From a virus (Duplodnaviria; Caudoviricetes), in IMG/VR virus record IMGVR_UViG_3300032213_002237, positions 1 to 64,000 of that record: 64,000 bases of DNA. One strand, 5' to 3'. Made by a program: the position numbers and the translations under genes. A model generated the notes under the pieces. It was not told the DNA's origin and did no database searches. It was given only the letters and a program-made list of their open reading frames with translations. Positions 4,573-52,219 of the stretch are shown here, one piece after another (within the stretch, counting starts at the first letter, position 1; each line of letters starts with the position of its first letter).

Positions 4573-6531
4573 ATGGCTGTAGATATCAAACAAGGATTTA
4601 AAGACGCTAAAGAAAAATTAGATACTTTACAAAAAACACAAAAGATTAGAACCGAATACGAAAAACGTATTAATAATTTTACTAATAAATTACAAGAAAA
4701 ATCAGATAAAATTCAACTTAATCTTGATTCCGCAGAAATATCCAGAAAAATTAAACAAACGGTATCAAATTCATTTACCGAACTTGTAAGTATGGTACAA
4801 ACGTCAACATCCGGAAAAACATCTGGTTACATTATTAAAGTTTTAAAAAAAACATTGATTGACAACCCTTCAGTAATTAAAAAAATTATTATGGAAGAGA
4901 TGATATCATCTTTAGGATGTTCTGAAGAACAAACATTTCAAACTAATCAAGAATTATATGTTGATATCGGTAAAATTGATATTTTTAAACAACTTAATTT
5001 TGACCCTGAATCGACACTAGGCGCATCAATTTATGAAAATAAAAATTATTCTGAAAATGGCGAACCCCCAAGAAGTGCTAATAGATTTTTTCATCAAGTT
5101 ATACAAGATAATGGAGTTCAATCAACATATTATGGGGCGTCAGGTCAAGCTCTTTTTAAAATAAGTTTTGAAACATTTAATGGTATTGAACAAGGTTACT
5201 ATTTTAAAGTAATTCTTTTAGATAGATTGACCGGTACTAATCAAGTCACAGAATTTCTTTTTGATTATTTTGAAAGTTTAAAGATTTTAGACTACAATAA
5301 CGCTGTAACTAAAATTGTAAATTTAGTACTTAACGCTTTTTCAGTTAATGCCGGTACAGGTCCTGTTTCATTAAATGACGAAAAATCCTTTGTTAAAATA
5401 TTACAAAGGATTTTAGGTATGTGTTTTGATTATGATAAAGAAATTGATGTTGGAGGTGTTTCAAAATACCCTGAGTATGATGACACTACTGATACTTTAT
5501 TTGAGTTTACCCCATCAGATTTATCTCAAATTGAAAATGAAATAGATTTAATTCGAAGAGGTTATGTAGAATTTATAGACTGTAATAATATACAGTTACC
5601 TATGACTGATACAGGATATATATTTGATATTATTTCACAAGTTAATGATGATGGTTCTAATATTGACGAAAATCTACAAGAGATATTTTTTAACTTATCA
5701 AATGACCCAAAATGGCAATTGCAATTACCACAAATTTTTAATGCATCATATAATGAAGACATTGTCAACAATTTTGTAAAAGGTGTTCTCATGTCGGTGT
5801 TGTCACCAAAAATAATTTTTCCTTTAGTTACTATGGGAAACGCAATGTTTACTACAGTAGATTCTGCCGGAGCTGAAATCCAACAAGATTTACAAGCTAG
5901 TTCCCCTGGATTAATAGCGTTTTCAAAAAAAAATAAAAGATTTTTAATTAACGTCACTTCAAAAATTGGAGGTGTTTTTTTAGAGGGATTATTTCTTGAG
6001 TTAAAAAGAGATATTATTAAAGTAGTTAAAGGTTTAGTACTGTATACATTAAAAACTAAACATCTAAGATTATATCTAATTACTCAAGAAATAATAAAAT
6101 ACTTTAATAAGTATCAATATCTAGGTAATTTAATAATAAGTGGAGTGAAAGATTTTAGGGAATGTAAAAGTTTATTAAAATATATATTTCTATTATTATC
6201 ATCAGTCAGAGCTAAGACTGATTTATTAGGAACTACAGATAATGAGCAAATACCGACCAGTGTTCTTGCATTATCATATATTTTAGAAGGTTCAAGCCCT
6301 GAAAGAGAATTACAAGAATATGTTGAGGAAATGCAAAAATTGGGGTTACCTGTCGGTACCGGAATAAATGGAGAACCTGATTTAGACACTCAAGCAACTT
6401 TTGCAAAATTTCAAGCAATTTTTAAAGAAAGAGCTAAAAATGGTAAAGTTGAAGCTGTTATGTACGGTCAACAATTAGCACCAACAGGACAACCAACCGG
6501 CGTTATCAGAGTAACAGGAAAACCACTTTAA
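4573..6531 (+). CDS. large hypothetical protein, probably virion structural
   Basis: 652-aa ORF in operon with baseplate-like gene. Confidence 0.6.
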   Translation: MAVDIKQGFKDAKEKLDTLQKTQKIRTEYEKRINNFTNKLQEKSDKIQLNLDSAEISRKIKQTVSNSFTELVSMVQTSTSGKTSGYIIKVLKKTLIDNPSVIKKIIMEEMISSLGCSEEQTFQTNQELYVDIGKIDIFKQLNFDPESTLGASIYENKNYSENGEPPRSANRFFHQVIQDNGVQSTYYGASGQALFKISFETFNGIEQGYYFKVILLDRLTGTNQVTEFLFDYFESLKILDYNNAVTKIVNLVLNAFSVNAGTGPVSLNDEKSFVKILQRILGMCFDYDKEIDVGGVSKYPEYDDTTDTLFEFTPSDLSQIENEIDLIRRGYVEFIDCNNIQLPMTDTGYIFDIISQVNDDGSNIDENLQEIFFNLSNDPKWQLQLPQIFNASYNEDIVNNFVKGVLMSVLSPKIIFPLVTMGNAMFTTVDSAGAEIQQDLQASSPGLIAFSKKNKRFLINVTSKIGGVFLEGLFLELKRDIIKVVKGLVLYTLKTKHLRLYLITQEIIKYFNKYQYLGNLIISGVKDFRECKSLLKYIFLLLSSVRAKTDLLGTTDNEQIPTSVLALSYILEGSSPERELQEYVEEMQKLGLPVGTGINGEPDLDTQATFAKFQAIFKERAKNGKVEAVMYGQQLAPTGQPTGVIRVTGKPL

Positions 6532-11243: not shown

Positions 11244-11489
11244 ATGTCAAAGTTAGATACACAAATTAAAAAAGTATTAAAAGAAATGTCAGAAGAACCA
11301 GAATATGGAAGACTTGATAGAAGTTTAGTACAAGACGTTATTGATAGATTACTATCAGATGAGACAGGTGGATATAGAGGTGCTTTAAAAGCATTAAATT
11401 CTGAATTTAGTACAGGACAATACTCAAGACCTGAAAGAACTTATGAACCTCTTAGACCAGGTATTAGAGTTAGTAAAAGTATTTATTAA
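11244..11489 (+). CDS. hypothetical protein with shared leader
   Basis: QIKKVLKE leader. Confidence 0.7.
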   Translation: MSKLDTQIKKVLKEMSEEPEYGRLDRSLVQDVIDRLLSDETGGYRGALKALNSEFSTGQYSRPERTYEPLRPGIRVSKSIY

Positions 11490-12223
11490 TCTAAAGCCTT
11501 TCTAATTAAAGAAATTAAGACCGATTCGTTGGTCTTTTTCTTTTTAGGTTTGTATGAAGTCATAACAGGTTTTTGACCTTTACCTGTTTGAGTATCTTTT
11601 TTTTCAGCATTTCTTTTTTGTTGACAAGCGGCTTGTTTTTGAGAATCAGACATTTTTGCTGCAACACCAACAGCTCTACATTTAGGATATCCTTTTTCAT
11701 CACCCTCAGGTCTACCACAAGGTGGATGTTTACCATCTTTTTTACGACAAATATTAACCCATGGACCTTTAGGTTGTTTACTTCCTTTTGGTTTTTTCTT
11801 AGTGCCAAACCAAACACCTAAATCTTCATTAGTCTCTTTTTTTGATTCATTCACCGAATCTACTTGATAATGTGGTTTAAGTCTCTTAAATGGAGCGTAC
11901 GCATATTCATCATCTCCTTCATCAGGAGCGTCTTGTCTATAATCTTTATCTCTAATATGTTTTGCTAATTTTTCTCTTTTTTGAATTTCTTTTTTAGATT
12001 TTTTAACATCACCATCTAAAGAATCATAATTTAAATCAGCATCAACATAATCAGATACAGGTTCAATAAATGGCATTAAATTTTTATCAAACCATTTTCT
12101 AATTCCTGGTCTAATTGGTGGTTTGTATGTACCACCAACAGTTGATGTAGTAGAGGCTTCATTTAAATATTCCTCATATTCAGTTAGTTTTTTAAGAATT
12201 TCTAAAATAACATTACTTTTCAT
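11486..12223 (-). CDS. hypothetical protein with basic Cys-containing domain (DUF5872-like)
   Basis: EDLGVWF...WVNIC...CGR...YPKCR motif; TATTTAT upstream. Confidence 0.7.
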   Translation of the reverse strand: MKSNVILEILKKLTEYEEYLNEASTTSTVGGTYKPPIRPGIRKWFDKNLMPFIEPVSDYVDADLNYDSLDGDVKKSKKEIQKREKLAKHIRDKDYRQDAPDEGDDEYAYAPFKRLKPHYQVDSVNESKKETNEDLGVWFGTKKKPKGSKQPKGPWVNICRKKDGKHPPCGRPEGDEKGYPKCRAVGVAAKMSDSQKQAACQQKRNAEKKDTQTGKGQKPVMTSYKPKKKKTNESVLISLIRKALD

Positions 12224-12264
12224 AACCAAAAAAATTGTTTATATTTACATAAATATCTAATACT

Positions 12265-12567: not shown

Positions 12568-14469
12568 TTATCTTAATTCATTCAAATCGAATGTACGAAC
12601 ACCATCAACGATGATACGACCATAGAAACGGTTATTAACCATCTTCTTAGCGTAACGTGTCATAATACCCTTGATAGGAGTAAAGTTGAATGGGTTATAC
12701 ATTGTTGGAGTTAATTGTAATGGTACGTATGGAGCGTAGATGTAACCAGTATCCAATAAAGAAGTACCTTTATGACCAATCAACACAGTGTTAGCTGGGA
12801 AGTATGGGTCACGGTATACTTGGTAACGACCACTTAATGTACCAACTCTCTCAATACCCATGTTGAATTGGTCTTGTTCAGGAGCCGCGTTTGATACGTG
12901 GAAGTATTCCAAGTCATCAAAGATAGCACTGATTTCAGAAGATACAACAATCCAGTTAGCTCCACCTCTTAAAGTAGACTTATGGATTTGAGCTGAAATT
13001 TGGTTGATTGCAGTAATCAACGTTTGATTCCAGTCCTTTTGAGTATAAGGAGTTGCTTGGTTGTTCAGACGCTTCCATCCGTTGTAATCCCAACGTAATG
13101 TCCAAGCCGCACCTTTACGTAAATCACGTAAAATTTCACGGTCAATTTCAGCTGCCACTTGCTCAGATAATAAAGCTGTTAATTCAGCCTCAGCATCGAT
13201 GTTGTGGAATGCTGCAACGTCTTGTGCCATTTCAGGAGACCATTGTGCTCTTAATTTTCTTTCTGTAACAGAAACAGTTACTGACTCAAGGTCGAAAGAA
13301 ACTTCACCAATTCTGTCTTCAAATTCTAACTCTTCGTAACGTCTCCAAGCTGCTAAAATGTTAGTGTAAGCGGCACCTGTACCATTGGTAGCTGCCGACC
13401 ATTGACTGTTTGTTAATGAAGAACCTGAATATCCATCAGGAGTTGATTGTCCACATGCAATACATGCAGGAACTTGAGCATCAATCTCTAAATAAATAAA
13501 TCCAGTTTGGCTACATACGTTATCATAATAACCACCGTTACCACCTGTGCTTGAATTACCAAACGCAGCTTGTTGTGAAGTATACTGAGGTCCGTACATT
13601 GCTTGACCATACTTCTGAGTTACAACACGATATAAAAGTGGTGTAAATCTGTTAGTATTCAAGTTAGATGCAACTGTTGAATTGTCAGTATAAAGTACTA
13701 AGTTAGATAAGAAAGATTCTGTATCTTGTTCTTGTCCGTCAGGACCAATTAACTTACCGATACCTGCAGTTGAGAATCCTGATAACGCAACAATAATTTT
13801 ACGATATTCAGTTGTACCTGTAGCATTTTGTCCATTAAGAGTATAACCTGATGGAATTAATGCTCCATTTGACCAAGCAACTGTTGGAGTAGCTGATGTT
13901 AAAGTAACAAATCTACCTTTAGAGTAATCAAATAAACCAGCTGGGTTAAGACCTGGCTCAGTTCCTTCATAGAACAAATCATAAAGATTCTTAGCGTAAG
14001 TTGAGTTGTAAGAACCGTTACCTGAACCGTAACCAGCGTCAGGATTTCCAGGATAGTTTCCAGGAGAACCAACTGGACCGTAATGGTCACCAGATGATAC
14101 ACCAAGACTGTCAGTAACTGAACCTCCAGAATAACCTTGGATTTGTGGTACGAAGTAGAACAATTTACCGATTGGTAAGTTCATAGCTTGTACAGAAACG
14201 ATTTCGTTAGACAATAATTTAGAGAACACACGTCTGATGATAGGGAATACCACAGTCTCGAATGAACCTGAATCTGCCGTAGAAGATGCTTCGTTAATCA
14301 AATGTGACGCTTGGTTTTCATACAATTGTGCAACATTTTCTTTTAGGTGGCCTTTAAGACCTTCAAGGAACCCTAATTTGTCCCATTTGTTTACTGTGTC
14401 TTCTTTGATAACTTTCAAGTGCTTAAGACCGATGTTACCAACTAATCCACTTTCTAATAATGCTCCCAT
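12568..14469 (-). CDS. major capsid protein (T4 gp23-like)
   Basis: VSVQAMNLPIGKLFY, RKLRAQWSPEMAQDVAAFHNIDAEAEL, YAPYVPL and GIMTRY motifs. Confidence 0.97.
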   Translation of the reverse strand: MGALLESGLVGNIGLKHLKVIKEDTVNKWDKLGFLEGLKGHLKENVAQLYENQASHLINEASSTADSGSFETVVFPIIRRVFSKLLSNEIVSVQAMNLPIGKLFYFVPQIQGYSGGSVTDSLGVSSGDHYGPVGSPGNYPGNPDAGYGSGNGSYNSTYAKNLYDLFYEGTEPGLNPAGLFDYSKGRFVTLTSATPTVAWSNGALIPSGYTLNGQNATGTTEYRKIIVALSGFSTAGIGKLIGPDGQEQDTESFLSNLVLYTDNSTVASNLNTNRFTPLLYRVVTQKYGQAMYGPQYTSQQAAFGNSSTGGNGGYYDNVCSQTGFIYLEIDAQVPACIACGQSTPDGYSGSSLTNSQWSAATNGTGAAYTNILAAWRRYEELEFEDRIGEVSFDLESVTVSVTERKLRAQWSPEMAQDVAAFHNIDAEAELTALLSEQVAAEIDREILRDLRKGAAWTLRWDYNGWKRLNNQATPYTQKDWNQTLITAINQISAQIHKSTLRGGANWIVVSSEISAIFDDLEYFHVSNAAPEQDQFNMGIERVGTLSGRYQVYRDPYFPANTVLIGHKGTSLLDTGYIYAPYVPLQLTPTMYNPFNFTPIKGIMTRYAKKMVNNRFYGRIIVDGVRTFDLNELR

Positions 14470-14496: not shown

Positions 14497-15879
14497 TTAT
14501 TTTATTATTTTTGACATAATGTCTTTCATTCTCAAGAATTGTGGATTCTCGTAAGTTTTAGATTCAATCAAATTAACGGCTGAACCTGACTGTGGAGTTT
14601 TCTCAATAACTCTTTCGATTGACTCATTAACAAATTTCTTATTGTTGTCAATATATAATTCGTCTTTGATATTTTTATAAAGGGCTTTAGACTCTTTAAG
14701 GGATTCCGCTGAATCAAATCTTCTTAAAATGTTAATTTTTTCTTGTTTTGATGTAGAATGTTCAGTGAACAATCTTGTAGCGTAAGCAAGATTCGAATTG
14801 AATATCGCAACTTCATTAAGTTTATCTCTAAACATATTTAAAGCCTTTCTATACTCTTCGTTTTTAGCTCTCAACATTTCAACTTCTTCCATGATTTCAC
14901 GGTTTTCAAAAGTTAAATTTCTGTTAGGTGTAACACCTTTTCTTAAACCACGTCCTTTCTTAGAACCAAATCCATAAGTACGAGCAGCTTCTTTAGCTTC
15001 TTCCTTAGTGAATTTTTTTACACCATGTGGACTTGGCATTTCAAACATATCACCTTCTTTAAATTCAAATTTAGGTTTTCCTGTATGAGCAGTTGGATTA
15101 ACGGCTTTTTTCTTTTCGTTAAAACCACCTTTTGTCTTTTTGAATGTAGATGCTGTTTTAGCGTTACCTACTTTCGCAGCACCTTTACCTAATTTTGCTT
15201 TAAATGATTCCATAACAGAGTCCATTTCTTCTTCCGTGTAGAAATCTTCTTCTTCAAGTGAATCCATTTCGATTTCATAAACCATTTCTTCAGTTTCTTC
15301 TTCTTCAAGTGAATCCATTTCGATTTCGTAAACCATTTCTTCAGTTTCTTCTTCAGTTTCTTCGTTATATTCCATACTTTCATATTCTTCTTCTTCAGAT
15401 TCAGTTTGAATAAGGTATTCATCTTCTTCATCTCTTAAATGAATAAAATCACCTTCTTTTTTAATTTCAAACGTGTCGTCAGAATTCATTTGTTTGAAAG
15501 CTTTAAGAACATCTTCCATAGGACTGTCAGTCAAATCTGTAACTTCCATAGAATCAAATTCATTATCATCTTCTATGTCAGATAAATCCATCATATCGAA
15601 TCCCTCCTCGTCAGATTCCTCTTCTTCAGATTCTTCTTCTTCAGATTCATCTTCTTCAGATTCATCTTCTTCAGATTCATCTTCTTCAGATTCTTCTTCA
15701 GATTCATCTCCGATTACGAACTCCTCTTCTTCAGCCTCATTTTTCATAGACTCTTTTACTAATTCACTAATTTCTTCTTTCATTGTAGAATGAAGTATTT
15801 CTTTTGCGTTTTCATTGATAGCTTCTTCCAAATTTTGTATTTGGATTAATGCCTCTTCAACTAAGTTTTTTTCTGCCAT
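14497..15879 (-). CDS. prohead scaffold/core protein
   Basis: very acidic coiled-coil protein between protease and MCP; many L/IxE sites; EEDES repeats. Confidence 0.8.
   Translation of the reverse strand: MAEKNLVEEALIQIQNLEEAINENAKEILHSTMKEEISELVKESMKNEAEEEEFVIGDESEEESEEDESEEDESEEDESEEEESEEEESDEEGFDMMDLSDIEDDNEFDSMEVTDLTDSPMEDVLKAFKQMNSDDTFEIKKEGDFIHLRDEEDEYLIQTESEEEEYESMEYNEETEEETEEMVYEIEMDSLEEEETEEMVYEIEMDSLEEEDFYTEEEMDSVMESFKAKLGKGAAKVGNAKTASTFKKTKGGFNEKKKAVNPTAHTGKPKFEFKEGDMFEMPSPHGVKKFTKEEAKEAARTYGFGSKKGRGLRKGVTPNRNLTFENREIMEEVEMLRAKNEEYRKALNMFRDKLNEVAIFNSNLAYATRLFTEHSTSKQEKINILRRFDSAESLKESKALYKNIKDELYIDNNKKFVNESIERVIEKTPQSGSAVNLIESKTYENPQFLRMKDIMSKIIK
15615..15707. repeat. coding 15-bp tandem repeat (EEDES/EEEES)
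   Basis: ttcagattcatcttc-type units repeated about 6 times. Confidence 0.85.
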
Positions 15880-16217: not shown

Positions 16218-16937
16218 TTATTTTCCTAAATAATCGGAAAGTCTTCCCATTAAATCAAGCGATTTGTTAACTGTTCTTGATGCTTTCATTTCATTTTCTT
16301 CTTGTAGGTTCTCCTCAAACGCAAATCTTCCATCAGGTTCAGTAAATAAATAAGCTCCCGGTGTTGATGGTGAAGATACCAAGTCAAAACAAATTAATTC
16401 AAAATCATCTTGAACTTCATTTTGGTCACCTACCTTCTTTAAGGAACCTACCCCTCTTGATGATATACCTAACGTTACACCCAATCTTAATAGATTTGCT
16501 GCTTGGTCACCCTTTGTAGATACGATACCTCTTTCATGGAACCCTGGTGAAGTTAGAAGTAATAGTTTACCTAATAGAACATTACCATCCCACCACATCT
16601 CTGTAATCATGTGTGATACTCTATCTAAATCTATCAACGAAGACTCAGGGTGGTTAAGTTCTGATAAGGCAGTTTTTTTACCAATATAATTTTTTATATA
16701 GTTTTCAGATTCTCTTTTTAGAATTCTTTCAGGATATATTCTACCGTTTCTATTCGGTGTATTATATTTTTGTAGAACGGCATAGAACTCAAATGGTTTT
16801 GAATAATCTTTAAAATCCCTACTTTCTTGTAGAAATGTTTGATTATGTTTTTCTGTTGGGGAAACATAACCTGCATCCATTTCAATTAAAATACCTTTTC
16901 CCGTCTCTTTTGGACCTAATATTTTGTAATTTTGCAT
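16218..16937 (-). CDS. prohead protease (T4 gp21-like)
   Basis: NRNGRIY, ELNHP, GISSRGVGS and FDLVSSPSTPGAY motifs. Confidence 0.95.
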   Translation of the reverse strand: MQNYKILGPKETGKGILIEMDAGYVSPTEKHNQTFLQESRDFKDYSKPFEFYAVLQKYNTPNRNGRIYPERILKRESENYIKNYIGKKTALSELNHPESSLIDLDRVSHMITEMWWDGNVLLGKLLLLTSPGFHERGIVSTKGDQAANLLRLGVTLGISSRGVGSLKKVGDQNEVQDDFELICFDLVSSPSTPGAYLFTEPDGRFAFEENLQEENEMKASRTVNKSLDLMGRLSDYLGK

Positions 16938-18408: not shown

Positions 18409-20247
18409 TCAACTTTTAAGTAGTTTATCTAATTGATTACCCATTTCCCCTAAAGATTCTTGAACACGACTTAAATCAATTAATTCATCTTCATTTAACA
18501 TTCCTGTATTTTCTAATAATATATTAAGTTCCGAATTACGGGTATACGACCCTTCAGGTACTGTTGGTGCCGCTTCAGGTGGAGCTGGTGCTGGTGACGC
18601 CGGAGCTTCAGGTGGAGTACTTTCACCACCTCCAAAATCACTCATTCCACCATCTGGTGGAGCTCCTCCACCTTCTGATGGAGTACCAGCCGGTTCACCT
18701 TCTTTTTTACCATACAACTTATCAAGATTATCAAATAAACCTGTGTGAGTAATAACTTCAGCAGTTTTCTTAAGTTCTTCACCAACAGCTCTTTCAATAC
18801 GTTGTTGTTGTAAGTCAAGTTTAATTTCTTCATCAGAAAATCCAAGAATATGTTTCTTAGCCCATGACATAGATACTGCGGCAATACCACTACCAGGGTC
18901 AGCAACCATATCTTTATATAGAAGAATTTTTTCTTTCCATACATCAATCTTCATCAAATCAGCTTGAGTTGATGGATTTGTTAAACTTAAATTAAAGTTT
19001 GATATTTCATCTTCAAATCCTAAAATAAATAAATGTATAATTGCAATTTTATTTAATTCAGAAATCATATTTTTTTGAATTCTGTTAATAGTTCTTGCAA
19101 AACGAATATCTTGTAATGATAAGTTCTTACCATCACCAACAGTTTCTTCAAATCCTAAAAACGCTTTAGGAACACGAAGAGCTGTTAATAATTTCTTTTG
19201 AATGTACTCAATGTCGGCAATTTCTGATAAGTTCTGAGCACCTGCTAATGTTTCAATAGGACTTGCTTGTGCGGTATCTCTAACAGGAACAAAATAATCT
19301 TGGTCAACTGCCATCTGATTAAATCTCATATCAACATTACCTGTCTTATGGTCAACCGTTTGACTTCTCTTAAACTTATTGGCAAATCTTTGGATATATG
19401 GTTCAACATCAGCATCGTCCATGTTTCCAACGAATACTTTAAATACACGTCTTTCAGGTGCTCTTGATGTTCTATAAATTAACATCGCATCTTCAGATAA
19501 CAATAATTGTTTCCAAATACGACGAGCCTTTTCTAACATAGAAGTTCCGTAAGGAAGTCTTCTATCATCACCAAGTAATCTAAAGTGAGCAATTTCCCAA
19601 GTATTGAACTCTAAATCCTTTTGCTTCCATTTAAATTTCAAATGTTTCTTTTCAGGATTTGTTGTTGAATCTGTTGAGTGCGCTCCCATACCCGCCTCCA
19701 ATCGTTCAATCTCGATGATTGGTAATTGCATACATCCTATAATACCTTTTTCAGGGTCTAATTTAAGATATACAAAATTATCACCATATTTACATGTGTT
19801 TCTTATCCACATAGGTAAATTGGTATTGATGTCTAGTGCGTTATTAAACAAATCACCGAGGATTGATTTAATTCTTGATGATTCAGAATAAATTTGTAAC
19901 ATAAAACCATTTTGGTCAATGGTTGTAGATTCTTCGGCGTAAATGTCTAAAGCTGCTCCAATTTCAGGTGTAAATTCCATTGACTCATAGTCATAGAATG
20001 ATGATAATCTGGTTGGTTCATAAAAAACCGCCTGTGTGTATAGATTATTTTCAATTCTACCCCATTGGTTTGCTAAATAATATGTTTGTTGTGCCTGAAG
20101 TTTTTCTCTTTCATATTCAGACTTAGAGGTTGTTTTTAATAACTCACTCTTATCATATTTGTATGTAGGATAATCCTGTCCCAAAAGAGAATTGGGTCCA
20201 AATGTTTGGGATAACCGTTGCCATACCGTTAGTTTATTTTCACTCAT
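18409..20247 (-). CDS. portal protein (T4 gp20-like)
   Basis: SMLEKARRIWKQLLLSEDAMLIYRTSRAPERRVF, DYFVP and ALRVPKAFL motifs. Confidence 0.96.
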   Translation of the reverse strand: MSENKLTVWQRLSQTFGPNSLLGQDYPTYKYDKSELLKTTSKSEYEREKLQAQQTYYLANQWGRIENNLYTQAVFYEPTRLSSFYDYESMEFTPEIGAALDIYAEESTTIDQNGFMLQIYSESSRIKSILGDLFNNALDINTNLPMWIRNTCKYGDNFVYLKLDPEKGIIGCMQLPIIEIERLEAGMGAHSTDSTTNPEKKHLKFKWKQKDLEFNTWEIAHFRLLGDDRRLPYGTSMLEKARRIWKQLLLSEDAMLIYRTSRAPERRVFKVFVGNMDDADVEPYIQRFANKFKRSQTVDHKTGNVDMRFNQMAVDQDYFVPVRDTAQASPIETLAGAQNLSEIADIEYIQKKLLTALRVPKAFLGFEETVGDGKNLSLQDIRFARTINRIQKNMISELNKIAIIHLFILGFEDEISNFNLSLTNPSTQADLMKIDVWKEKILLYKDMVADPGSGIAAVSMSWAKKHILGFSDEEIKLDLQQQRIERAVGEELKKTAEVITHTGLFDNLDKLYGKKEGEPAGTPSEGGGAPPDGGMSDFGGGESTPPEAPASPAPAPPEAAPTVPEGSYTRNSELNILLENTGMLNEDELIDLSRVQESLGEMGNQLDKLLKS

Positions 20248-29393: not shown

Positions 29394-31457
29394 ATGACAG
29401 ATTCAGTTGAAGAAGGTGGGAAACTACCAAAAAAAACAGAGGTTAATTCAAGTACACCTGTTTTAGACAATTTTAGTCGTGACCTTATTAAACTTGCCGA
29501 AGAAGGTAAGTTAGACCCCGTTGTCGGTAGGGAAGACGAAATATTACGTATTGCTCAAATTCTTTCAAGAAGAAAGAAAAACAACCCAATTATCATCGGT
29601 GAACCTGGTTGTGGTAAGACGGCAATTGTTGAGGGATTGGCGATGAAGATTTTTGAAGGTGATTGTCCAAGAAACTTGGTTGACAAACGTATTCTTTCAT
29701 TAGAAATGAATTCAGTTGTTGCAGGAACAAAGTATCGTGGTCAATTTGAAGAGCGATTAAAGGTTATCTTGGAAGAAATTCAAGCAAACCCAAATGTTAT
29801 TCTATTCATTGATGAAATCCATACCATTGTCGGAGCGGGTAACGCCTCAGGTTCCATGGACGCATCCAACATCTTAAAACCAGCATTATCGAGAGGTGAA
29901 ATACAGTGTATTGGAGCTACTACATTGGATGAGTATAAAAAACAAATTGAAAAAGACGGAGCGTTGGATAGACGTTTCCAAAAAGTAATTGTTAGTTCAT
30001 CAACAAAAGAAGAAACATTACAAATCCTTAAAAATGTTAAAGACAGATATGAAAATTATCACAAGGTAAACTATACCGATAGTATTCTACAAATCTGTGT
30101 TGATTTAGCTGAACGATATATTACGGACAGAGAGTTTCCTGACAAGGCATTTGATATTTTGGATGAAGTCGGAGCAAGAGCTCAGGTAGATGTGAAAAAT
30201 CCTGAAATAATTGACGAATTAAAACGTCAAGCGTTAGAGATTAAACAACAAAAATTACTTGTTGTTAAAAAACAGAATTACGAAGAAGCTGCAAACTTAA
30301 GAGATAAAGAAAAAAAAGTTTTATCACAACTTGATATTGAAAAGAAGAAGTTTGAACAAACTTTATTAGATAATAGAAAAACAATTTCTGAAGAATTGGT
30401 TTACGAGGTGGTGTCAACAATGACAAAAATACCTTTAACAAAACTTAATTTAGATGATAAGATTGCTCTTATTAATTTAGAAGAAGAATTAAATAAATCG
30501 GTTATCGGACAAAAAGAAGCGGTTACAAAGATTGCGAAATCTATTCGTAGAAATAGATTAGGTATCAAAGACCCAAATAAACCAATTGGTTCATTCATAT
30601 TCTTAGGTTCAACAGGTGTTGGTAAGACGTTATTAGCAAAAGAATTGGCAAAACAAATTTTTGGTAGTGATGAAAATCTTATCCGAGTTGATATGTCTGA
30701 ATACCAAGATAAACATACCGTATCTCGTTTAATTGGTTCACCTCCAGGTTATGTAGGGTATGACGAAGGTGGACAACTTACAGAACAGGTAAAGACCAAG
30801 CCATACTCTGTGGTATTATTTGACGAGGTTGAGAAAGCCCACAAAGACATATTCTCAGCATTACTTCAACTATTGGATGAAGGTTATATGACGGATAGTT
30901 TTGGAAGAAAAATCAATTTCAAAAACTGTCTAATCATTATGACATCAAATCTTGGGGTGAAAAAGATGCAAGAATTTGGAGCAGGTGTTGGATTTAGTAA
31001 GAATGGTAATGTTTACGCTAATGAAGAACTTAAGAAAACAATGTTAAACAAAGAATTGAAGAACCACTTCGCACCTGAGTTTATCAATCGTTTGGATGAG
31101 GTAATTGTATTCAACACACTTCAAAATGACGATATTCAAAAGATTGTTTTGGTTGAGATTAACAAATTGAAATTTCGTTTGTCAAAATTGGGATACAACA
31201 TTAACTTCGGTCAGTCAGTAATTGACTTTGTTTCAAAAGTTGGATTTGATGATGTTTACGGAGCACGTCCTTTGAAAAGAGCGATTCAAGAAAAGATTGA
31301 AGACTATATTTCAGATGAAGTATTACGTGAAAAAATTGTAATGGATAAGTCCTACAATATTGAAATCAATGATGAAGAAGTGTCAATATCAGAAGTTGAA
31401 GCCCAACCTGATGAAACACCAAAAGTGAAAAGACCAAGAAAGAAAAAGGGGGAATAA
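29394..31457 (+). CDS. clpC: ClpC-like AAA+ unfoldase lacking N-terminal domain
   Basis: two NBDs (GEPGCGKT, GSTGVGKT), UVR-like middle QNYEEAANLRD, GVGF ClpP-docking loop; ATG 29394. Confidence 0.9.
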   Translation: MTDSVEEGGKLPKKTEVNSSTPVLDNFSRDLIKLAEEGKLDPVVGREDEILRIAQILSRRKKNNPIIIGEPGCGKTAIVEGLAMKIFEGDCPRNLVDKRILSLEMNSVVAGTKYRGQFEERLKVILEEIQANPNVILFIDEIHTIVGAGNASGSMDASNILKPALSRGEIQCIGATTLDEYKKQIEKDGALDRRFQKVIVSSSTKEETLQILKNVKDRYENYHKVNYTDSILQICVDLAERYITDREFPDKAFDILDEVGARAQVDVKNPEIIDELKRQALEIKQQKLLVVKKQNYEEAANLRDKEKKVLSQLDIEKKKFEQTLLDNRKTISEELVYEVVSTMTKIPLTKLNLDDKIALINLEEELNKSVIGQKEAVTKIAKSIRRNRLGIKDPNKPIGSFIFLGSTGVGKTLLAKELAKQIFGSDENLIRVDMSEYQDKHTVSRLIGSPPGYVGYDEGGQLTEQVKTKPYSVVLFDEVEKAHKDIFSALLQLLDEGYMTDSFGRKINFKNCLIIMTSNLGVKKMQEFGAGVGFSKNGNVYANEELKKTMLNKELKNHFAPEFINRLDEVIVFNTLQNDDIQKIVLVEINKLKFRLSKLGYNINFGQSVIDFVSKVGFDDVYGARPLKRAIQEKIEDYISDEVLREKIVMDKSYNIEINDEEVSISEVEAQPDETPKVKRPRKKKGE

Positions 31458-33874: not shown

Positions 33875-33902
33875 AAAAAGGGACTGAAAAGTCCCTTTTT
33901 TT
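33875..33902. terminator. bidirectional intrinsic terminator
   Basis: aaaaagggact-gaaa-agtcccttttt. Confidence 0.88.
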
Positions 33903-35508
33903 ATTTAATCATTTTTGATTTAATATTTTCAATATCTTCTAAAATATTTTTTTTCTTTTCTTCCGATTCAAATTGAGGTAACAAATCACCAATTTTATCC
34001 AATATGTCATCAACACTATATCCAAAAATTTCAAATCCGTCATTAGTATCTTTAACGTCTTTTTTATTTTCAACTTTTGAAACTAATTCTTTTTGACTTT
34101 CTTTATCGCCGGCTTTAGCTCCAGTAAGACTTCCTAACCCAACAGAATCTAAAAATGAATCTAATTTACTTGGTTTCTTTTCATTTTTTACAACTTCAAA
34201 AGTTGACGGTTCCCCACTTGGGTCAGAAAAATCAGGTGTTAATAAATCATCAATGTGTTTACCATATGGTAAACCTACGTGAACATGAGTTGATTTACTT
34301 TCACCCCATTCTGAAACTTTACCTATAGGTGTTCCGATATCAACAATATCACCCTTTTTAACTGTAACATCTTTTAAGTGAGTGTAAAAAATATTAGGAT
34401 ACCCATCAGTTCCCTCAATTGAAACTTGTGTTCCATATATTTTACCTGAACTTTTTCCCGTATTGTAAACCTTTGTAACAGTTCCTTTAGTTATTGAATT
34501 CCACTGAGTTCCAGCTGGTGCAAACAAATCCCACGCATTGTCAGATTGCCAATTACCTAACGGTCTAGAACCGTGGTATTTTGGACCATTTTCAATATCT
34601 CCTGAAAAATTATCTAAAACTTTTGAATTTTTTTCAAAAATGTATTTCATTTTTTTTAATTCATTAATAACTTCTTCATTTAATTTTTTCTTATCTTTAT
34701 TTCCATAAGATTCAAATTGTGGTAATATATCACCAATTTTATCTATTATATCATCAACTTTATATCCAAAAATTTCAAATCCATCATCAGTATCTTTAAC
34801 ATCTGTTTTATCTTGAACTTTTGAAACTAATTCTTTTTGACTTTCTTTATCACCGGCCTTAGCACCTGTAAGACTTCCTAATCCAATAGAATCTAAGAAT
34901 TTTTCTAATTTAGAAGGTTCTTGTGTTGTTTGTGACGACTCAATTTTTTCAAAATCAATATCTTCTAAATTATCTAAGTTTTTTAAAGACGAACAAAATT
35001 GAGATGTTCCCCCACCTTCATCTGTTTTATTATCAGAATAAGATAAATGGTAATGAACTCCTGTTGAAAATCTACTTGGTCTTCTATATTCATCAATGAA
35101 TGTAAAACCAGGATATTTTTTTCTTAACGCACATAATAAAGTAGATATTTTATCAAGTTCATCATTATCACCTTTTTCAATCCCTTTGAATACAACATCA
35201 ATTGCGTTACCTTTGTTGTGTCGGCTATTTGGGTATTGTTTATGGAATAAATCTCTACCTGAACCAAACTTTATTTTTAAATCAGGTAATTTTTGTTTAA
35301 ACGCGCTCGCAACATCTTTTAAAGTATCACCAAATTCAGGAGTTAAATCACCAACTTCCGCCATTGTTCTTTTAGTTTCATATCCTAAACTCTCCAAGTG
35401 ATTTTTAACACTTGTTGCAACTGGACGAGCACTTGATTCTTCTTCAAATATATTTTCTAACTTACGTAGTTCTTTTAACGATTGTTCGTGTAATTGTTTT
35501 TTATTCAT
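33901..35508 (-). CDS. two-domain peptidoglycan peptidase (M15-like + M23-like)
   Basis: SRHNKGNAID...HYH (M15); WDLFA..YTHL..V.KGD.V..G..IG...HVH (M23); duplicated ~65-aa segment. Confidence 0.75.
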   Translation of the reverse strand: MNKKQLHEQSLKELRKLENIFEEESSARPVATSVKNHLESLGYETKRTMAEVGDLTPEFGDTLKDVASAFKQKLPDLKIKFGSGRDLFHKQYPNSRHNKGNAIDVVFKGIEKGDNDELDKISTLLCALRKKYPGFTFIDEYRRPSRFSTGVHYHLSYSDNKTDEGGGTSQFCSSLKNLDNLEDIDFEKIESSQTTQEPSKLEKFLDSIGLGSLTGAKAGDKESQKELVSKVQDKTDVKDTDDGFEIFGYKVDDIIDKIGDILPQFESYGNKDKKKLNEEVINELKKMKYIFEKNSKVLDNFSGDIENGPKYHGSRPLGNWQSDNAWDLFAPAGTQWNSITKGTVTKVYNTGKSSGKIYGTQVSIEGTDGYPNIFYTHLKDVTVKKGDIVDIGTPIGKVSEWGESKSTHVHVGLPYGKHIDDLLTPDFSDPSGEPSTFEVVKNEKKPSKLDSFLDSVGLGSLTGAKAGDKESQKELVSKVENKKDVKDTNDGFEIFGYSVDDILDKIGDLLPQFESEEKKKNILEDIENIKSKMIK

Positions 35509-39902: not shown

Positions 39903-41306
39903 TTAATCTTCTTTAAATGTTTTAGTTGTTGTGTCATAAGTATAATCTTTTCCGTTTGCTTTCCAATAACCACTCACGTCAGTATCATTTGTCGCGTCGT
40001 CAATACTTAAACTATTAGCTGTTAGGAATTTTTTGAAATCTTCAAGTGTTTGAGTATATTCTTTTTTACCACCTTCTGCAGGTTTGGTACCACCAATTTC
40101 TTCAACTGTCTTATTTGCAAGTTTTGGGTCAATACACGTAATTTTAACATTCTCACCTAAATTATTTTTCTTTTCAAGGTAAAATTCACCTTCTTTTTCA
40201 ATTACAGTTTCTAATTGACCATCATAAACTACTTTAGGATAGTACTTATCTACGTATTCATCTGAACCTAAAGCCTTCACATGGCTATCAGTTATCTTTT
40301 TATCACAAGAACTAATTAACCTTTTCAAAATATCCTGAGCTTCTTCAATATCTACCTGATATAACTCAAATCCAACAAATGTTCCACCTATTAACCCAAG
40401 AGAGACTATAGCTAGAGCAATTTTTACAGGTTTTGTAAGTGGGGGCATCTTAGGTAAGTATTCTTTAAATGCATCATATTGAGCCTTGAATTCCGCTCTT
40501 CTAATACCCTTTAACTTATTTGCGGCTTCCTGTATTTGAGTTTGAGAATCTGCTAATTTTTTCTGTAATTGTTCAAGTGTGACATTTGGATTGTCTGAAA
40601 TAAATTGTTTTGCTCTCGACTCTAAAACATCTGGTTTTACCTTAATTGTTTTAGAAATTGTTTGAATTTCTTTTTTTATTCCTTCACTCAAATTTCCAGT
40701 TTCATCCAACATACCTTTTAATGCATTTGTTAGATTCTTAACATTTGATTCAATTTGGGATTTTGCCCTATAATAATTATTATAAAGTCTATAACCTAGT
40801 TCATCTTGGATTCCCGTACTTTCACCGGATTTAAGTATTGTATCAAGACTTTCACCGTATGTATTATCAGCCGATTTTAAATCGTTTGCCTTTACTGATG
40901 AAGAAAACAAATCATCTGAAGATAACTCATCCGCCATTTTTTTCAAGCTTGGGTTTGTATTTACTACTGCCGCCGCCATTTTTCCCCTTATCTCTCTATT
41001 ACTAGATTTAACAAGTTTTTCAGCAATATCGTTAACCAAATCATCTGATAATTTACCAGCTCTAATATCTGTAATTATATCATCAAAAGTTTTACCTCCA
41101 GATTGAGCAATTTCATCAAAACTATTTCTAAGTGATTCCGCAACATCGTCAACCCCATCTTTAACCAAATCTTCAAAATCATCGACACTTTTACCAAAAA
41201 GAGTTAAAAATTCATCAATAACACCACCACCAACGGATTCTTTTAAAAGAGGTAATCCTAAAATTTCTCTAAAACGATTAATTTCGTATAAAATTTCTTT
41301 TTCCAT
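39903..41306 (-). CDS. hypothetical protein with leader and one TM segment
   Basis: ILYEINRFREILGLPLLKE leader; IALAIVSLGLIGG. Confidence 0.75.
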   Translation of the reverse strand: MEKEILYEINRFREILGLPLLKESVGGGVIDEFLTLFGKSVDDFEDLVKDGVDDVAESLRNSFDEIAQSGGKTFDDIITDIRAGKLSDDLVNDIAEKLVKSSNREIRGKMAAAVVNTNPSLKKMADELSSDDLFSSSVKANDLKSADNTYGESLDTILKSGESTGIQDELGYRLYNNYYRAKSQIESNVKNLTNALKGMLDETGNLSEGIKKEIQTISKTIKVKPDVLESRAKQFISDNPNVTLEQLQKKLADSQTQIQEAANKLKGIRRAEFKAQYDAFKEYLPKMPPLTKPVKIALAIVSLGLIGGTFVGFELYQVDIEEAQDILKRLISSCDKKITDSHVKALGSDEYVDKYYPKVVYDGQLETVIEKEGEFYLEKKNNLGENVKITCIDPKLANKTVEEIGGTKPAEGGKKEYTQTLEDFKKFLTANSLSIDDATNDTDVSGYWKANGKDYTYDTTTKTFKED

Positions 41307-44242: not shown

Positions 44243-44710
44243 TTAAATGATTTTCTTGAACCACTTAAGTGATTCATTGATTTGTTCTTGAACTAAATAA
44301 GCCTTTGATTTTACTTTAATACCTTCTTCAATTTCTTCCATAGAATATGCTTTAGTTCCACACTGTTCACATTGTTCACCTTCTTTCATTTCACCATTAC
44401 ATTGTTCACATGTTTCACCCTCACTCATAGATGAACACTGTTCACACATTTCACCTTCATATAATCCACTACATTGTTCACAAACTTTCTTAAGTTTTTG
44501 ATTAATGTTGGTGTTTTTATATTCAGTAACATCACCTCTATTATTAACGGTAATTCCTTTTTCATCTAACGCCAAATTTTCAACATTAAGAATTTGTTCT
44601 TTTGGTGTGTTAAATCCACGACTAACATATCCATCATATGGACTTCTGTGTTTATCTTGTATTGATTCTTTTTCTTCTTTAGTAATATTCAAAAAAAATG
44701 CGTTTCTCAT
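44243..44710 (-). CDS. CEQC-repeat protein with leader
   Basis: four CEQC repeats; ITKEEKESIQDKH leader. Confidence 0.75.
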   Translation of the reverse strand: MRNAFFLNITKEEKESIQDKHRSPYDGYVSRGFNTPKEQILNVENLALDEKGITVNNRGDVTEYKNTNINQKLKKVCEQCSGLYEGEMCEQCSSMSEGETCEQCNGEMKEGEQCEQCGTKAYSMEEIEEGIKVKSKAYLVQEQINESLKWFKKII

Positions 44711-47012: not shown

Positions 47013-47612
47013 TTACCAAAATCCTGGGTAAGTTTTACCACCCCACAAATAACCAAAACGGTTTAAACGACATGCCCAATAACCAGCAGTTAATCTATCT
47101 TTCTTTTTAGAACACTGATGTCTTGCAGCAAATGATTTACGAGCTTTAGGGTTAGATACCTTAGCAGTTAATCCACCATGAACATCACCAAATGAAATCT
47201 TCTTAACTCTACCTGTTGATGGGTTTTTAACATAAACAACATATTTCTTACCACCACCACTATTTCTTCTTGGTTTACCAAGTTCAACTTTCTTACCATT
47301 ATGTTCCGCCTCAGAAATAAATTCTTCTTCCATAGGAGTATCCAAGTAAATAACTCTACCACTTGATAATCTAACCTGTGTTCCAAAATCAGATTCAATA
47401 AGTTCAACATCATCTTCATTTAACTCAACCATTCCCTCGTAATACAACTCACGAGCTTCGTTAATAACATTAAAGAACTCTTCTGAACCAAATCTGAAGA
47501 TATTATCATTCAATGGTACTTCATTTGTTATATGATAATTAAGGTGTTCTGAAATAAGTGGTTTTTCCACCGATTCTGTAAGAACTTTTTTGATAAGTTT
47601 TTTGATATTCAT
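47013..47612 (-). CDS. hypothetical protein with leader and basic C-terminal domain (DUF6321-like)
   Basis: LIKKVLTE leader; KKISFGD...RKSFAARHQC...AGYWAC. Confidence 0.75.
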   Translation of the reverse strand: MNIKKLIKKVLTESVEKPLISEHLNYHITNEVPLNDNIFRFGSEEFFNVINEARELYYEGMVELNEDDVELIESDFGTQVRLSSGRVIYLDTPMEEEFISEAEHNGKKVELGKPRRNSGGGKKYVVYVKNPSTGRVKKISFGDVHGGLTAKVSNPKARKSFAARHQCSKKKDRLTAGYWACRLNRFGYLWGGKTYPGFW

Positions 47613-47812
47613 TTTTTACTTCGTAATAAGAAATACAACCCAAATAACAATGCTGAAATACAGTAAAAAATTCCTGTGGTAATCCAATAAGAACTTGTGT
47701 AGTCTAAAATTGCTTTGAACATTATGTCGAATCCTAGTGGATTGAAAAACATTGCGAGCATAAGGCAGTAAGTGGCAACATTTTCCTTTAGAATTCGTTT
47801 CATTTTCGTCAT
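47609..47812 (-). CDS. small two-TM membrane protein
   Basis: FFNPLGFD; hydrophobic helices. Confidence 0.65.
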   Translation of the reverse strand: MTKMKRILKENVATYCLMLAMFFNPLGFDIMFKAILDYTSSYWITTGIFYCISALLFGLYFLLRSKK

Positions 47813-47860
47813 TATCCATTAACGTGGGTTTAAAGTTTATGAACAAAGTTCATTTTATTT

Positions 47861-47989
47861 ATAAATATATTTGTGTGGAGGAATATTTTGTATATATTTG
47901 TAGAAATAATTAAATAATCAAGTCCTATGAAAAACTTATTTCTTTCTCTTGTTTTAGTAATGGTTGGATTAGTTGCCAACTCACAAGTA
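47861..47989 (+). repeat. promoter plus signal-peptide cassette, copy 1
   Basis: near-identical to 49240-49368. Confidence 0.85.
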
Positions 47990-48379
47990 TTTGTTGTAAA
48001 AACTGATACTATCCAAAAATTTCAACACCCAAAAGAAGTTAATTTTATTCCATCATTGGAAAATGGTTTAATTACATATACCACTCTTGGTCAGGGGGAA
48101 GTTGTTTACACTATTGATGTCGACAATAAATCTTTAACTATGAAAAATGGTGAGGGTGTGGTGTTTAATTTTGTAATCACTGAGGTATTCAAAAATCCAT
48201 CAAACGATATTTTAGTTTCTTTTGAATGTGTCGATACTAAAGGTTTTAAAGGTGTTGTAGTCGTTTACAAAAATGATAATAAATCAGTTAATATGTTAGT
48301 TGAGTATGACATTAATAATGAAACCACTGAAGGTTACATGTGTTTTGATGTTAAATGTAAAAAGAAAAACCCTCGTTAG
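47927..48379 (+). CDS. secreted protein (Sec signal peptide)
   Basis: MKNLFLSLVLVMVGLVANS/QV. Confidence 0.8.
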   Translation: MKNLFLSLVLVMVGLVANSQVFVVKTDTIQKFQHPKEVNFIPSLENGLITYTTLGQGEVVYTIDVDNKSLTMKNGEGVVFNFVITEVFKNPSNDILVSFECVDTKGFKGVVVVYKNDNKSVNMLVEYDINNETTEGYMCFDVKCKKKNPR

Positions 48380-48391
48380 AGGGTTTTTTAA

Positions 48392-49222
48392 TTAGATAGT
48401 TTGAATCCTTATATAATCATTTGTAGAAAATGAACGTTCCATGTCTTGGTCACTACCATCAACAAATACAGGGCATTTTGCCGATACACCTGGAAAACCA
48501 TTTATACGATAAAAACTTGTAGGTCTTAAACCACTACAAAAAGCATCCATAGCTTGATTTGAATTCGGGTTATCAAAGAAATTCTTTGAGGCTTGACTGT
48601 AATTAGAGTCTAAAAAATTACCTCCTGAATAATCCCCCTTAACTTTAGGATGAATGTGCCTATTCACTCTATCGTCAGGACATCCTGGTGTTCCTCTTTC
48701 ATTAAGTATTTTATTAAATAAATTCCATGGTAATGGTTTAACAACGTAATTAGAAGAATCGTTACCTGCCTTAAATGTGTAGACCCAACCGGTAGGATTA
48801 TTTTTATCTTTTTTACCTGTCCATTTTGGTTCAGAACAATGTTCCCCTTGCACAACAGTAATACCTTTGTCTGATAATAATTTTTGATATGCCTCTTTTT
48901 TAACTACAATCATTTCTGGATAATTTCCACCCACTTCACTCATTATCTCATATTTACCTACACCATAAACTTTATCACCAGTTTGTTTGGCAATTTCTTC
49001 TATATTACGACTTTGTTTTTGAGGAACCTCAACGACTTTAACACCACCATTAAGTGTTTTTATACCTAAATTAGATAAATCAGGATTTTGAGCCGTAGTT
49101 TGTGTCGTAGTTTGAGTTGTTCCAGTAGGTTGAGTAGTTGGTTGAACAGTATCTTCTTCATATAGAACTTTTTTGATTATTTTAACTAAATCATTTTCAG
49201 TTAGTCTAACTATTTTTGCCAT
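48392..49222 (-). CDS. hypothetical protein with shared leader
   Basis: MAKIVRLTENDLVKIIKKVLYE. Confidence 0.8.
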   Translation of the reverse strand: MAKIVRLTENDLVKIIKKVLYEEDTVQPTTQPTGTTQTTTQTTAQNPDLSNLGIKTLNGGVKVVEVPQKQSRNIEEIAKQTGDKVYGVGKYEIMSEVGGNYPEMIVVKKEAYQKLLSDKGITVVQGEHCSEPKWTGKKDKNNPTGWVYTFKAGNDSSNYVVKPLPWNLFNKILNERGTPGCPDDRVNRHIHPKVKGDYSGGNFLDSNYSQASKNFFDNPNSNQAMDAFCSGLRPTSFYRINGFPGVSAKCPVFVDGSDQDMERSFSTNDYIRIQTI

Positions 49223-49239
49223 AATAAAATATTTTATTT

Positions 49240-49368
49240 ATAAATATGTTTGTGTAGACGAATATTTTGTTTATATTTGTAGAAATAATTAAATAATCAA
49301 GTCCTATGAAAAACTTATTTCTTTCTCTTGTTTTAGTGATGGTTGGTTTAGTTGCTAATTCACAGGTT
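49240..49368 (+). repeat. promoter plus signal-peptide cassette, copy 2
   Basis: near-identical to 47861-47989. Confidence 0.85.
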
Positions 49369-49740
49369 GTAACTGTAACAATTACAAAGTTTCAAAATTT
49401 TAATCATAGTTCATCAATTCCAACATTTGATGCGATGGATTCGGATTTGATTGAATATCCTAATTACGGAATTGGAAAAAATGTTTACACATTTGACTTC
49501 AATAAAAGAACTGTTAACTTGGTAAACTGTAATGGTGAATTCGTATTACCAATCATTGAAGTTTTCAATACAAAAAATGTTTTTGATTGTATTGTTGATG
49601 ATAACGGAACTAAAACATACTACACACTTGGTAAAATTGAAGATGAGGATACTCTTGAATTTATTACTGAATACCAAGATGGTAATAGAGTTTTTGGTTC
49701 CTTTTCAAAAGGTAGTGATGTGACATTCACAACTAAATAA
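49306..49740 (+). CDS. secreted protein, paralog of 47927..48379
   Basis: identical 21-aa N-terminus; G..VYT.D..K pattern shared. Confidence 0.8.
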   Translation: MKNLFLSLVLVMVGLVANSQVVTVTITKFQNFNHSSSIPTFDAMDSDLIEYPNYGIGKNVYTFDFNKRTVNLVNCNGEFVLPIIEVFNTKNVFDCIVDDNGTKTYYTLGKIEDEDTLEFITEYQDGNRVFGSFSKGSDVTFTTK

Positions 49741-49769
49741 AAAAAGGGAAGATTAAATCTTCCCTTTTT
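49740..49769. terminator. bidirectional intrinsic terminator
   Basis: aaaaagggaagat-taa-atcttcccttttt. Confidence 0.85.
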
Positions 49770-49789
49770 AAATTTAAATTATCTTTATA

Positions 49790-50443: not shown

Positions 50444-50514
50444 AATATAATTTTTATTAATAAATACATGTCGTTTTGAAAAAATTATATACTTATAGCT
50501 AAATAAATGAAATA

Positions 50515-50655: not shown

Positions 50656-50657
50656 AC

Positions 50658-51771: not shown

Positions 51772-51794
51772 AGGACAAATATACATAATCTTTC

Positions 51795-52178: not shown

Positions 52179-52219
52179 CTTAACAATAAATATCTTATAT
52201 TTCTTTTGTATATATAATT

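Follow-up and report, generated by a model that had tools for sequence, protein, structure and literature searches.

The conserved C-terminal tail of a gp22-like phage scaffold protein and a class of modular propeptide-like tags appear to share a core at the family level

The internal proteins of phage T4 carry propeptides of 10-20 residues that address them to the core of the prohead and, after incorporation, are removed by the gp21 protease at L/I-X-E sites (PMC9026906, PMC9958956, PMC5694885; these and later citations refer to passages of the papers named). Incorporation of these proteins into the core precedes the addition of the shell, and they co-purify with gp22 (PMC9026906); the addressing of proteins to the T4-type prohead core is still called mysterious (PMC9958956). 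In phage 80alpha, the last 16 residues of the scaffold comprise an 11-residue amphipathic helix and a hook on the N-arm of the capsid protein, and CpmB of SaPI1, whose C-terminal end is almost identical to that of the 80alpha scaffold, competes for the site (PMC5644958). Here we analyze the C-terminal tail of a scaffold-position open reading frame (ORF 14497..15879, minus strand) and its resemblance to short tags of other proteins in a 64,000-nucleotide stretch of DNA from a virus of the Caudoviricetes (positions 1 to 64,000 of IMG/VR record IMGVR_UViG_3300032213_002237), hereafter called the window.

The C-terminal helix of the P22 scaffold is of a type that binds coat protein, and the same holds for herpesvirus; an earlier note on the window took this as its premise when it proposed that cargo proteins mimic the capsid-binding helix of the scaffold. 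The herpesvirus scaffold has a conserved protease site about 20-25 residues from its C-terminal end, and cleavage frees the scaffold from its anchor; the herpesvirus protease shares the scaffold tail because the genes are nested. In encapsulins, diverse enzymes reach the inside of an HK97-fold shell by way of short terminal cargo-loading peptides, which bind the shell protein directly.

The tail of the scaffold ORF and a tag carried by other proteins, here termed class C, appear to share an in-register core at the family level, a conclusion that is supported by the comparison of sequence profiles. Judged by its sequences, the class C tag is a modular, propeptide-like element of about 15-20 residues that is usually N-terminal. 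We see an even chance that the tail serves as an anchor that can be detached, and that tail and tag represent two versions of a single removable label that directs proteins to the head interior and is recognized by a common receptor. The features of the scaffold ORF on which this interpretation draws are as follows.

14497..15879, minus strand: scaffold-position ORF, 460 amino acids, acidic, located between the gene for the S77 protease and that for the Gp23 capsid protein, like T4 gene 22
14644..14925, minus strand: confident helical body, residues 319-412; AlphaFold2 (AF2) helices 319-373, 378-389 and 394-412, with a block predicted local distance difference test score (pLDDT) of 93-98
14689..14700, minus strand: third protease-type site, L-K-E-S, residues 394-397; E396 kept in 143/150 and S397 in 147/151
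14620..14631, minus strand: second protease-type site, [IVL]-[TN]-E-S, residues 417-420; E419 invariant in 151/151 aligned rows, within the low-confidence linker
14560..14571, minus strand: L-x-E-S protease-type site, residues 437-440; L437 kept in 145/150 and E439 in 149/150, within a segment of AF2 pLDDT < 50
14500..14571, minus strand: scaffold tail peptide quoted in the earlier note, residues 437-460, located in ORF 14497..15879
14500..14562, minus strand: conserved 21-residue C-terminal tail, residues 440-460, as judged by conservation across 150 representatives
14503..14544, minus strand: predicted terminal helix, residues 446-459; AF2, block-mean pLDDT 73-85

The order of the head genes is the same as in T4, and the 460-residue ORF therefore occupies the position of gene 22, the major scaffold. 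Its metagenomic relatives at E <= 1e-3 number 7,676 among 8,000 scored candidates, and 1,569 in a search of 1.84 billion cluster representatives. Conservation was counted over 150 listed representatives clustered at 50% identity, with 151 aligned rows at some positions. The length of the family members ranges from 358 to 634 amino acids, and the variation lies mainly in the acidic middle. Within the final 70 residues, the longest stretch of uninterrupted conservation is the last 24 (437-460); the last 21 rank among the best-conserved of the whole protein, and almost every one of the 150 listed relatives aligns right up to its own C-terminus. Within the tail, Y443 (147/150), P446 (146/150), R450 (144/150), M455 (145/150) and K457 (142/150) are kept, as is Q447, whose count falls within 142-147. 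The cultured Microcystis phage Mel-JY01 encodes, upstream of its capsid gene, a 366-residue protein that ends in an L-x-E-S-type site followed by a tail of the same kind.

An AF2 model made on an 86-sequence alignment places a low-confidence linker (residues 413-445, with 415-426 and 432-440 below pLDDT 50) between the helical body and the terminal helix. The linker holds two [LIV]-x-E-S sites, and the upstream sites lie about 20 and 40 residues before L-x-E-S 437-440. A core protein of the gp22 type would be largely helical and acidic, with several L/I-X-E sites at which gp21 degrades it; for the ORF, a helical body and acidic disordered regions are predicted, and three conserved [LIV]-x-E-S sites are present. 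The C-terminal helix reported in the earlier note is indeed present: the AF2 helix 446-459 is conserved, tethered and preceded by a protease-type site, and in the model the scaffold end has the form of a short terminal helix on a flexible tether, the anchor type of P22, 80alpha and herpesvirus. The L-x-E-S site at 437-440 fits the L/I-X-E rule of T4 gp21 (PMC9026906), and we infer from its sequence that a gp21-type protease would cleave there. A supposed internal repeat of the tail within the scaffold was rejected as an artefact of two truncated sequences, which disappeared after cleaning of the alignment (5 rows dropped). Also rejected was the K-T-Y shared by the start of the tail (S-K-T-Y-E-N) and the capsid targeting sequences (CTS) of T4 ipII and ipIII (M-K-T-Y-Q-E), which is too short and within chance expectation. 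As a separate observation, the acidic middle of the scaffold (15189..15450, minus strand, residues ~175-215) contains a direct repeat of ~16 residues in two copies, together with Glu-Ser and Glu-Asp runs.

The core that the helix 446-459 shares with class C reads [EQ]-hydrophobic-x-[KR]-[MI]-K-x-hydrophobic-M-[GS]. All seven peptides quoted in the earlier note were found where it places them in the window, the six besides the scaffold tail lying in the minus-strand ORFs 53889..55679, 39903..41306, 33901..35508 (two segments), 44243..44710 and 11486..12229. Three of their locations score as class C or close to it.

55623..55679, minus strand: N-terminal class C tag (residues 1-19, with an L-x-E site at its end) of a protein that fuses polyphosphate kinase 2 (PPK2) to lysozyme; on the class C profile, rank 1 among about 25,000 profile windows
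41238..41306, minus strand: class C-variant N-terminal tag of ORF 39903..41306, residues 1-23; 15.0 bits and rank 2 on the 11-column class C profile, null 95th percentile 14.9
33904..33945, minus strand: C-terminal end of an M23 peptidase, a borderline class C-like tail; 5.4-6.8 bits, rank 11-16

The tag of the PPK2 fusion keeps rank 1 after the removal of PPK2-type tags from the training set, and is conserved and modular among orthologs. The tag of ORF 39903 ranks 23-27 on the 8-column core and is kept in 4 orthologous N-termini. Membership of the M23 C-terminal end in class C is borderline on its own sequence; its close orthologs reach 11-12 bits and P0287 reaches 14.5 bits, and the relative P0279 carries an N-terminal class C tag of 21 bits, so that the motif occurs at either end within one protein family. 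The resemblance claimed in the earlier note thus stands at the family level for the scaffold tail with the PPK2 and 39903 tags and is borderline for the M23 C-terminal end, and of the six segments cited there, four do not resemble the tail. When scored on the class C profile, the internal M23 segment ranks 40-114 of about 25,000 profile windows and the C-terminal ends of ORFs 44243 and 11486 rank in the thousands, and none of these three is supported. The note had further proposed that the tag works at either terminus or internally; occurrence at either terminus is borne out by L164, L135 and the M23 family, whereas the internal example is the M23 segment just mentioned. As regards the PPK2 protein itself, ORF 53889..55679 (minus strand) joins a polyphosphate kinase 2 (1.3e-70) to a phage lysozyme domain (3.5e-11) behind the tag; some of its orthologs have the tag and others do not, and several, at 355-374 amino acids, are short enough to lack the lysozyme part.

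The distribution of class C was obtained by scanning a degenerate back-translation of its core over IMG/VR, in which 116 stretches matched, 80 of which were analyzed as loci. The core lies <= 14 residues from the first ATG in 60 of these 80 loci, at the head of ORFs of 89-600 amino acids. The modularity of the tag is evident in 41 PPK2-related loci: 19 have the standard tag, 3 have variant tags, 3 have the same tag on an unrelated 205-residue ORF, 14 are without the tag and 2 are uninformative. An [LIV]-x-E site begins at or just after the final Leu of the tag in 23/25 representatives, compared with 14% of background 9-residue windows, and another ends at the first Glu of the tag in 14/25. In the C-terminal class C tags of L164 and L135, the [LIV]-x-E site precedes the tag. 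Among ten large contigs found solely via class C tags, eight encode this scaffold family, and the other two are 56% and 59% complete.

A class C profile was built in 8- and 11-column versions from 25 non-redundant N-terminal tags, none of them from scaffolds. Four scaffold relatives end in near-perfect class C cores of 20-22 bits (null 95th percentile of the proteome-wide maximum, 14.9), and the scaffold tails form a continuum from this near-perfect form to the form of the window. As a control, the profile columns were permuted 2000 times, which keeps the composition and destroys the register, and the permuted profiles were scored on 149 scaffold tails. With 8 columns, the observed median was 10.7 bits against 1.6 +/- 2.4 for the permuted profiles, 5/2000 of which reached the median and 0/2000 the maximum; with 11 columns, 19/2000 reached the median and 1/2000 the maximum; but the scaffold tails are one related family, and the resulting p-value therefore amounts in effect to one consensus compared with one profile. 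On the 11-column profile, 7/149 scaffold tails score >= 15 bits. Among 28 other ortholog families, such scores occur solely in the PPK2 family (10/10, the tag itself) and in terminase (1/16).

This limit on the permutation test and the following results weigh against the interpretation of tail and tag as one label. Some of them favour a different explanation, by which the resemblance is coincidental or convergent: the tail would be an anchor or assembly element of the scaffold, the tags would serve an unrelated purpose (another protein contact, turnover or localisation), and both would follow a common Lys/Met/Ile-rich helical pattern of an AT-rich genome. We judge this explanation unlikely, although its chance is substantial. 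It is favoured by the failure of the single-sequence tests. A tail profile of 146 cleaned sequences was run over the 129 ORFs of the contig and over 100 residue-shuffled proteomes; its best non-scaffold match reached 8.7 bits, whereas the maxima of the shuffled proteomes averaged 9.2, and the segments cited in the earlier note, six in all, scored 4.4 (PPK2 N-terminal end), -0.7, -1.6, -4.4, -8.7 and -11.1 bits, none of them above the shuffled controls. The earlier note had itself named a lack of profile similarity over shuffled controls as an outcome that would refute it, and for the window's own sequences this is the outcome obtained. A profile-profile scan of 29 real ortholog families (about 7,500 profile windows) gave no outlier; the ranks of the PPK2 tag were 8-12 (short core) and 134 (17 columns), and those of the tail of ORF 11486 were 95-263. 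In the opposite direction, the window's tail taken alone is not significant on the class C profile, with 11.7 bits on 8 columns (rank 3 of 25,092; null-maximum mean 12.3) and 5.7 bits on 11 columns (rank 11 of 24,705; null-maximum mean 11.2). The common core spans only about 6-8 positions, and unrelated internal segments, such as portal residues 122-133, reach equal scores on the class C profile. The amphipathic character that the earlier note had ascribed to all of the segments was rejected as a unifying feature, as their hydrophobic moments span the 21st to the 99th percentile; that of the scaffold's terminal helix is unremarkable (72nd percentile).

The genomes provide evidence on both sides. 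In 8/8 genomes with both elements, the tags vary but the scaffold tail adheres to a sub-consensus of its own; there is, therefore, no within-genome co-variation, as a coincidental likeness would have it. Similarly, a relaxed core pattern has no instance in the 190 kb of Mel-JY01 besides the scaffold tail, so that this phage has the tail without the tags. Against coincidence stand the co-occurrence of tag and scaffold family in 8/10 contigs, the near-perfect class C cores at the ends of some scaffold relatives, the rarity with which composition-keeping permuted controls reach the observed scores, and the position of [LIV]-x-E sites, which adjoin both elements on the side expected for removal.

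Two further points concern the assignment of the proteins. No sequence homology of the scaffold ORF to T4 gp22 is detectable (BLASTP E = 1.1); homology to gp22 was rejected on this ground, and the ORF is called gp22-like by position and architecture for this reason, not as a member of the sequence family. It matches no Pfam family, its PHROG match is weak and to a group of unknown function, and a tblastn search over 50,697 deposited phage records gave no match. Likewise, most tagged proteins have no known function. In a Pfam scan of 10 of them, 2 were PPK2, and 1 gave P-loop kinase-like (AAA-type) matches, which had E <= 1e-3 but fell below the curated cut-offs; the other 7 matched no family, and the tagged proteins are for this reason only putative cargo.

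The same adjacency of core and protease-type site allows for another explanation, in which the shared core would be a docking element that recruits the gp21-type protease to the short [LIV]-x-E site next to it, and not a structural signal for a receptor. The cleavage motif of T4 is surprisingly short (PMC9026906), which makes extra determinants plausible, and a cleavage-type site is adjacent in 23/25 tags and nearly invariant before the tail. The capsid protein site L-I-N-E and the other two scaffold sites, however, have no such core alongside, and we consider this explanation quite improbable.

In the interpretation of tail and tag as one removable label, a large T4-like phage would have ORF 14497..15879 as its major scaffold (core) protein, in which a helical body is followed by a flexible linker of ~33 residues with [LIV]-x-E-S sites and by a 14-residue terminal helix. 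In the immature head, the terminal helix would tether the scaffold to a partner until, with assembly complete, the gp21-type protease removes the helix by a cut at L-x-E-S. The class C tag, which in this clade of phages occurs on PPK2 kinases, a relative of the M23 peptidase and many proteins without a known function, has an [LIV]-x-E site of its own behind it in nearly all cases and would be the other form of the label. This proposal draws on the conservation, the predicted architecture, the family-level likeness of the motifs, the position and modularity of the tag, the enrichment of adjacent sites and the co-occurrence of the two elements; from these we infer cleavage, binding, a receptor and packaging of the tagged proteins.

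The candidate receptors, by analogy, are the scaffold core, which the T4 precedent slightly favours, and the capsid protein, at its inner face or its N-terminal propeptide. The capsid-binding mimicry proposed in the earlier note is a special case of the shared label. In this version, the tail would be a capsid-binding helix of the kind present in P22, 80alpha and herpesviruses, and the cargo tags would mimic the tail and occupy the same groove of the major capsid protein (MCP). The family-level likeness of tail and tag agrees with this proposal, as do the succession of body, flexible linker and short terminal amphipathic helix described for the 80alpha scaffold (PMC5644958) and the probable contact of the N-terminal region of T4 gp23 with the core (PMC9546572). 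The entry of T4 internal proteins into the core before the shell, together with their co-purification with gp22 (PMC9026906), points instead to a core receptor for tags of the CTS type, and the shared receptor could therefore be the scaffold core and not the capsid protein. Moreover, the distinct sub-consensus of tails and tags in 8/8 genomes argues against simple mimicry. We hold the capsid-binding proposal to be distinctly unlikely. Prediction of a complex between the MCP and scaffold residues 421-460 gave a score of 0.00, the partner's own fold being uncertain, and has no bearing on binding in either direction.

A wider proposal is that a single bidirectional helical zip code of ~10 residues beside a protease site serves the scaffold (C-terminally) and a changing set of enzymes (N- or C-terminally: PPK2 kinases, peptidoglycan hydrolases and proteins of unknown function) throughout a widespread uncultured T4-like clade, and that competition of scaffold and cargo for a single receptor sets the cargo load of the head. 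We regard it as possible but doubtful.

The window is AT-rich (about 27-35% GC), and the record that contains it has 84,199 bases and an estimated completeness of 29%. Contigs related to the record reach 240-294 kb, and its source is, therefore, probably a jumbo T4-like phage of an abundant uncultured clade. The head module of T4 type lies on the minus strand and comprises the portal, two small ORFs, the S77 protease, a 71-residue ORF, the 460-residue ORF and the Gp23 capsid gene, and the annotated record of T4 has the gene order 20-67-68-21-22-23, as in the window.

18409..20247, minus strand: portal (Portal_T4, 1.6e-75)
16218..16937, minus strand: gp21-like prohead protease, the presumed enzyme for the [LIV]-x-E sites (Peptidase_S77, PF03420, 9.4e-27, above its cut-off; phrog_207, 2.9e-44)
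12568..14469, minus strand: major capsid protein, one candidate receptor for the scaffold tail (Pfam Gp23, 4.4e-72)

An S77 prohead protease is thus encoded within the head module, as in the gp21 maturation system, and in tblastn its ORF matches g21 of cyanomyophages and others. The last ~16 residues of the protease are strongly conserved (55 orthologs) and resemble the ending of g21 of cyanophage S-RSM4; this C-tail may be a signal for the incorporation of the protease itself. The idea that it copies the scaffold tail was rejected: it is the top non-scaffold match on the 9-column tail profile (12.1 bits, null-maximum mean 10.9; rank 2-8 of about 7,500), but it is a feature of the gp21 family that S-RSM4 g21 has as well, and on the class C profile it scores 1.1 bits in the median and 7.5 bits at most. 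The small head-module families 17675, 16960 and 15996 are not class C-like either, with maxima of 4.5-8.2 bits for the C-tails and 7.9-9.7 bits for the N-termini. In the capsid protein, L-I-N-E at residues 57-60 is invariant in 47 sequences and followed by a variable stretch, and looks like a propeptide cleavage site. The protein has 633 residues compared with 521 in T4, with two stretches of Gp23 Pfam similarity and a poorly conserved insertion at roughly residues 110-350. In Mel-JY01 (L246), a gene annotated as ribosomal protein S21 (5637..5864) lies inside the head module, between the protease and the scaffold-position gene. On the plus strand of the window, ORF 29394..31457 encodes a full-length ClpB/ClpA-like double AAA+ protein (phrog_4871, 5e-237) that adjoins the structural genes.

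Other tag-like N-termini are present in the record. The regions 47013..63818 and G000 64283..84005 hold dozens of small ORFs in sets defined solely by conserved N-terminal tags: M-K-K-hydrophobic-x-R-L-T-E-S-D-L... heads at least 8 ORFs of 77-276 amino acids, M-K-Y-L-I-T-E-S-Q-L... about 18 ORFs and M-N-L-Q-E-x-I-K-K-V-L-R-E-E about 9 ORFs. The first two classes are related (12-21 bits in a profile test, null 95th percentile 14.9), and all three contain [LI]-x-E sites; the sets may be further classes of targeting propeptides or simply families of paralogs. The C-tail of the family formed by ORF 11486..12229 and its orthologs in L001-L080 consists of a variable Lys-rich stretch, N-E-S and a variable helix; one ortholog has in its stead a true class A tag (R-L-T-E-S-D-L), which is normally N-terminal. 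The tail of ORF 11486 belongs with a tag class other than class C. The tails of ORFs 11486 and 44243 were, however, rejected as class A tags themselves, with 6.7 bits (rank 25) and -1.7 bits (rank 425), respectively, compared with a null-maximum mean of 11.0.

If tail and tag are forms of one label, they offer a concrete and testable receptor hypothesis for the addressing of proteins to the prohead core, a sequence rule by which the proteins that large uncultured phages package (and probably inject) could be predicted, and a natural tag that is a candidate for loading T4-like heads with foreign proteins. As the scaffold tail is also present in the cultured phage Mel-JY01, at least the tail half of the proposal could be tested at the bench.

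In comparison with the CTS of T4 (IPII, IPIII), as far as these are described in the passages cited above, the class C tags match in their N-terminal position, in length and in the L/I-X-E site that follows, and they likewise sit on unrelated proteins. They differ from them in that their sequence is not that of the CTS of the T4 record, that they also occur C-terminally, and that delivery is putative. The resemblance to the 80alpha/CpmB pair, within the same limits of description, lies in a second protein with a near-copy of the terminal helix of the scaffold, which is short and amphipathic in both systems. There, however, the mimic is the rival scaffold of a satellite, is always C-terminal, and its capsid binding has been shown structurally; the look-alikes described here are for the most part putative propeptides at the N-termini of enzymes that the phage itself encodes, and are known from sequence alone. 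With the herpesvirus scaffold, the tail has in common a conserved protease-type site shortly before the C-terminal end, but the protease family and the sequence are different, and the tail of the protease is here a separate feature of the gp21 family. Encapsulins, unlike class C in the interpretation given here, work without a scaffold, a protease or removal of the peptide. Targeting propeptides and look-alikes of scaffold tails are thus each already known, and among the papers listed by literature searches none describes a motif common to a gp22-type scaffold and cargo propeptides. What appears to be new here is a core common to the presumably cleavable C-terminal end of the major scaffold and to modular, mostly N-terminal propeptides in a T4-like clade.

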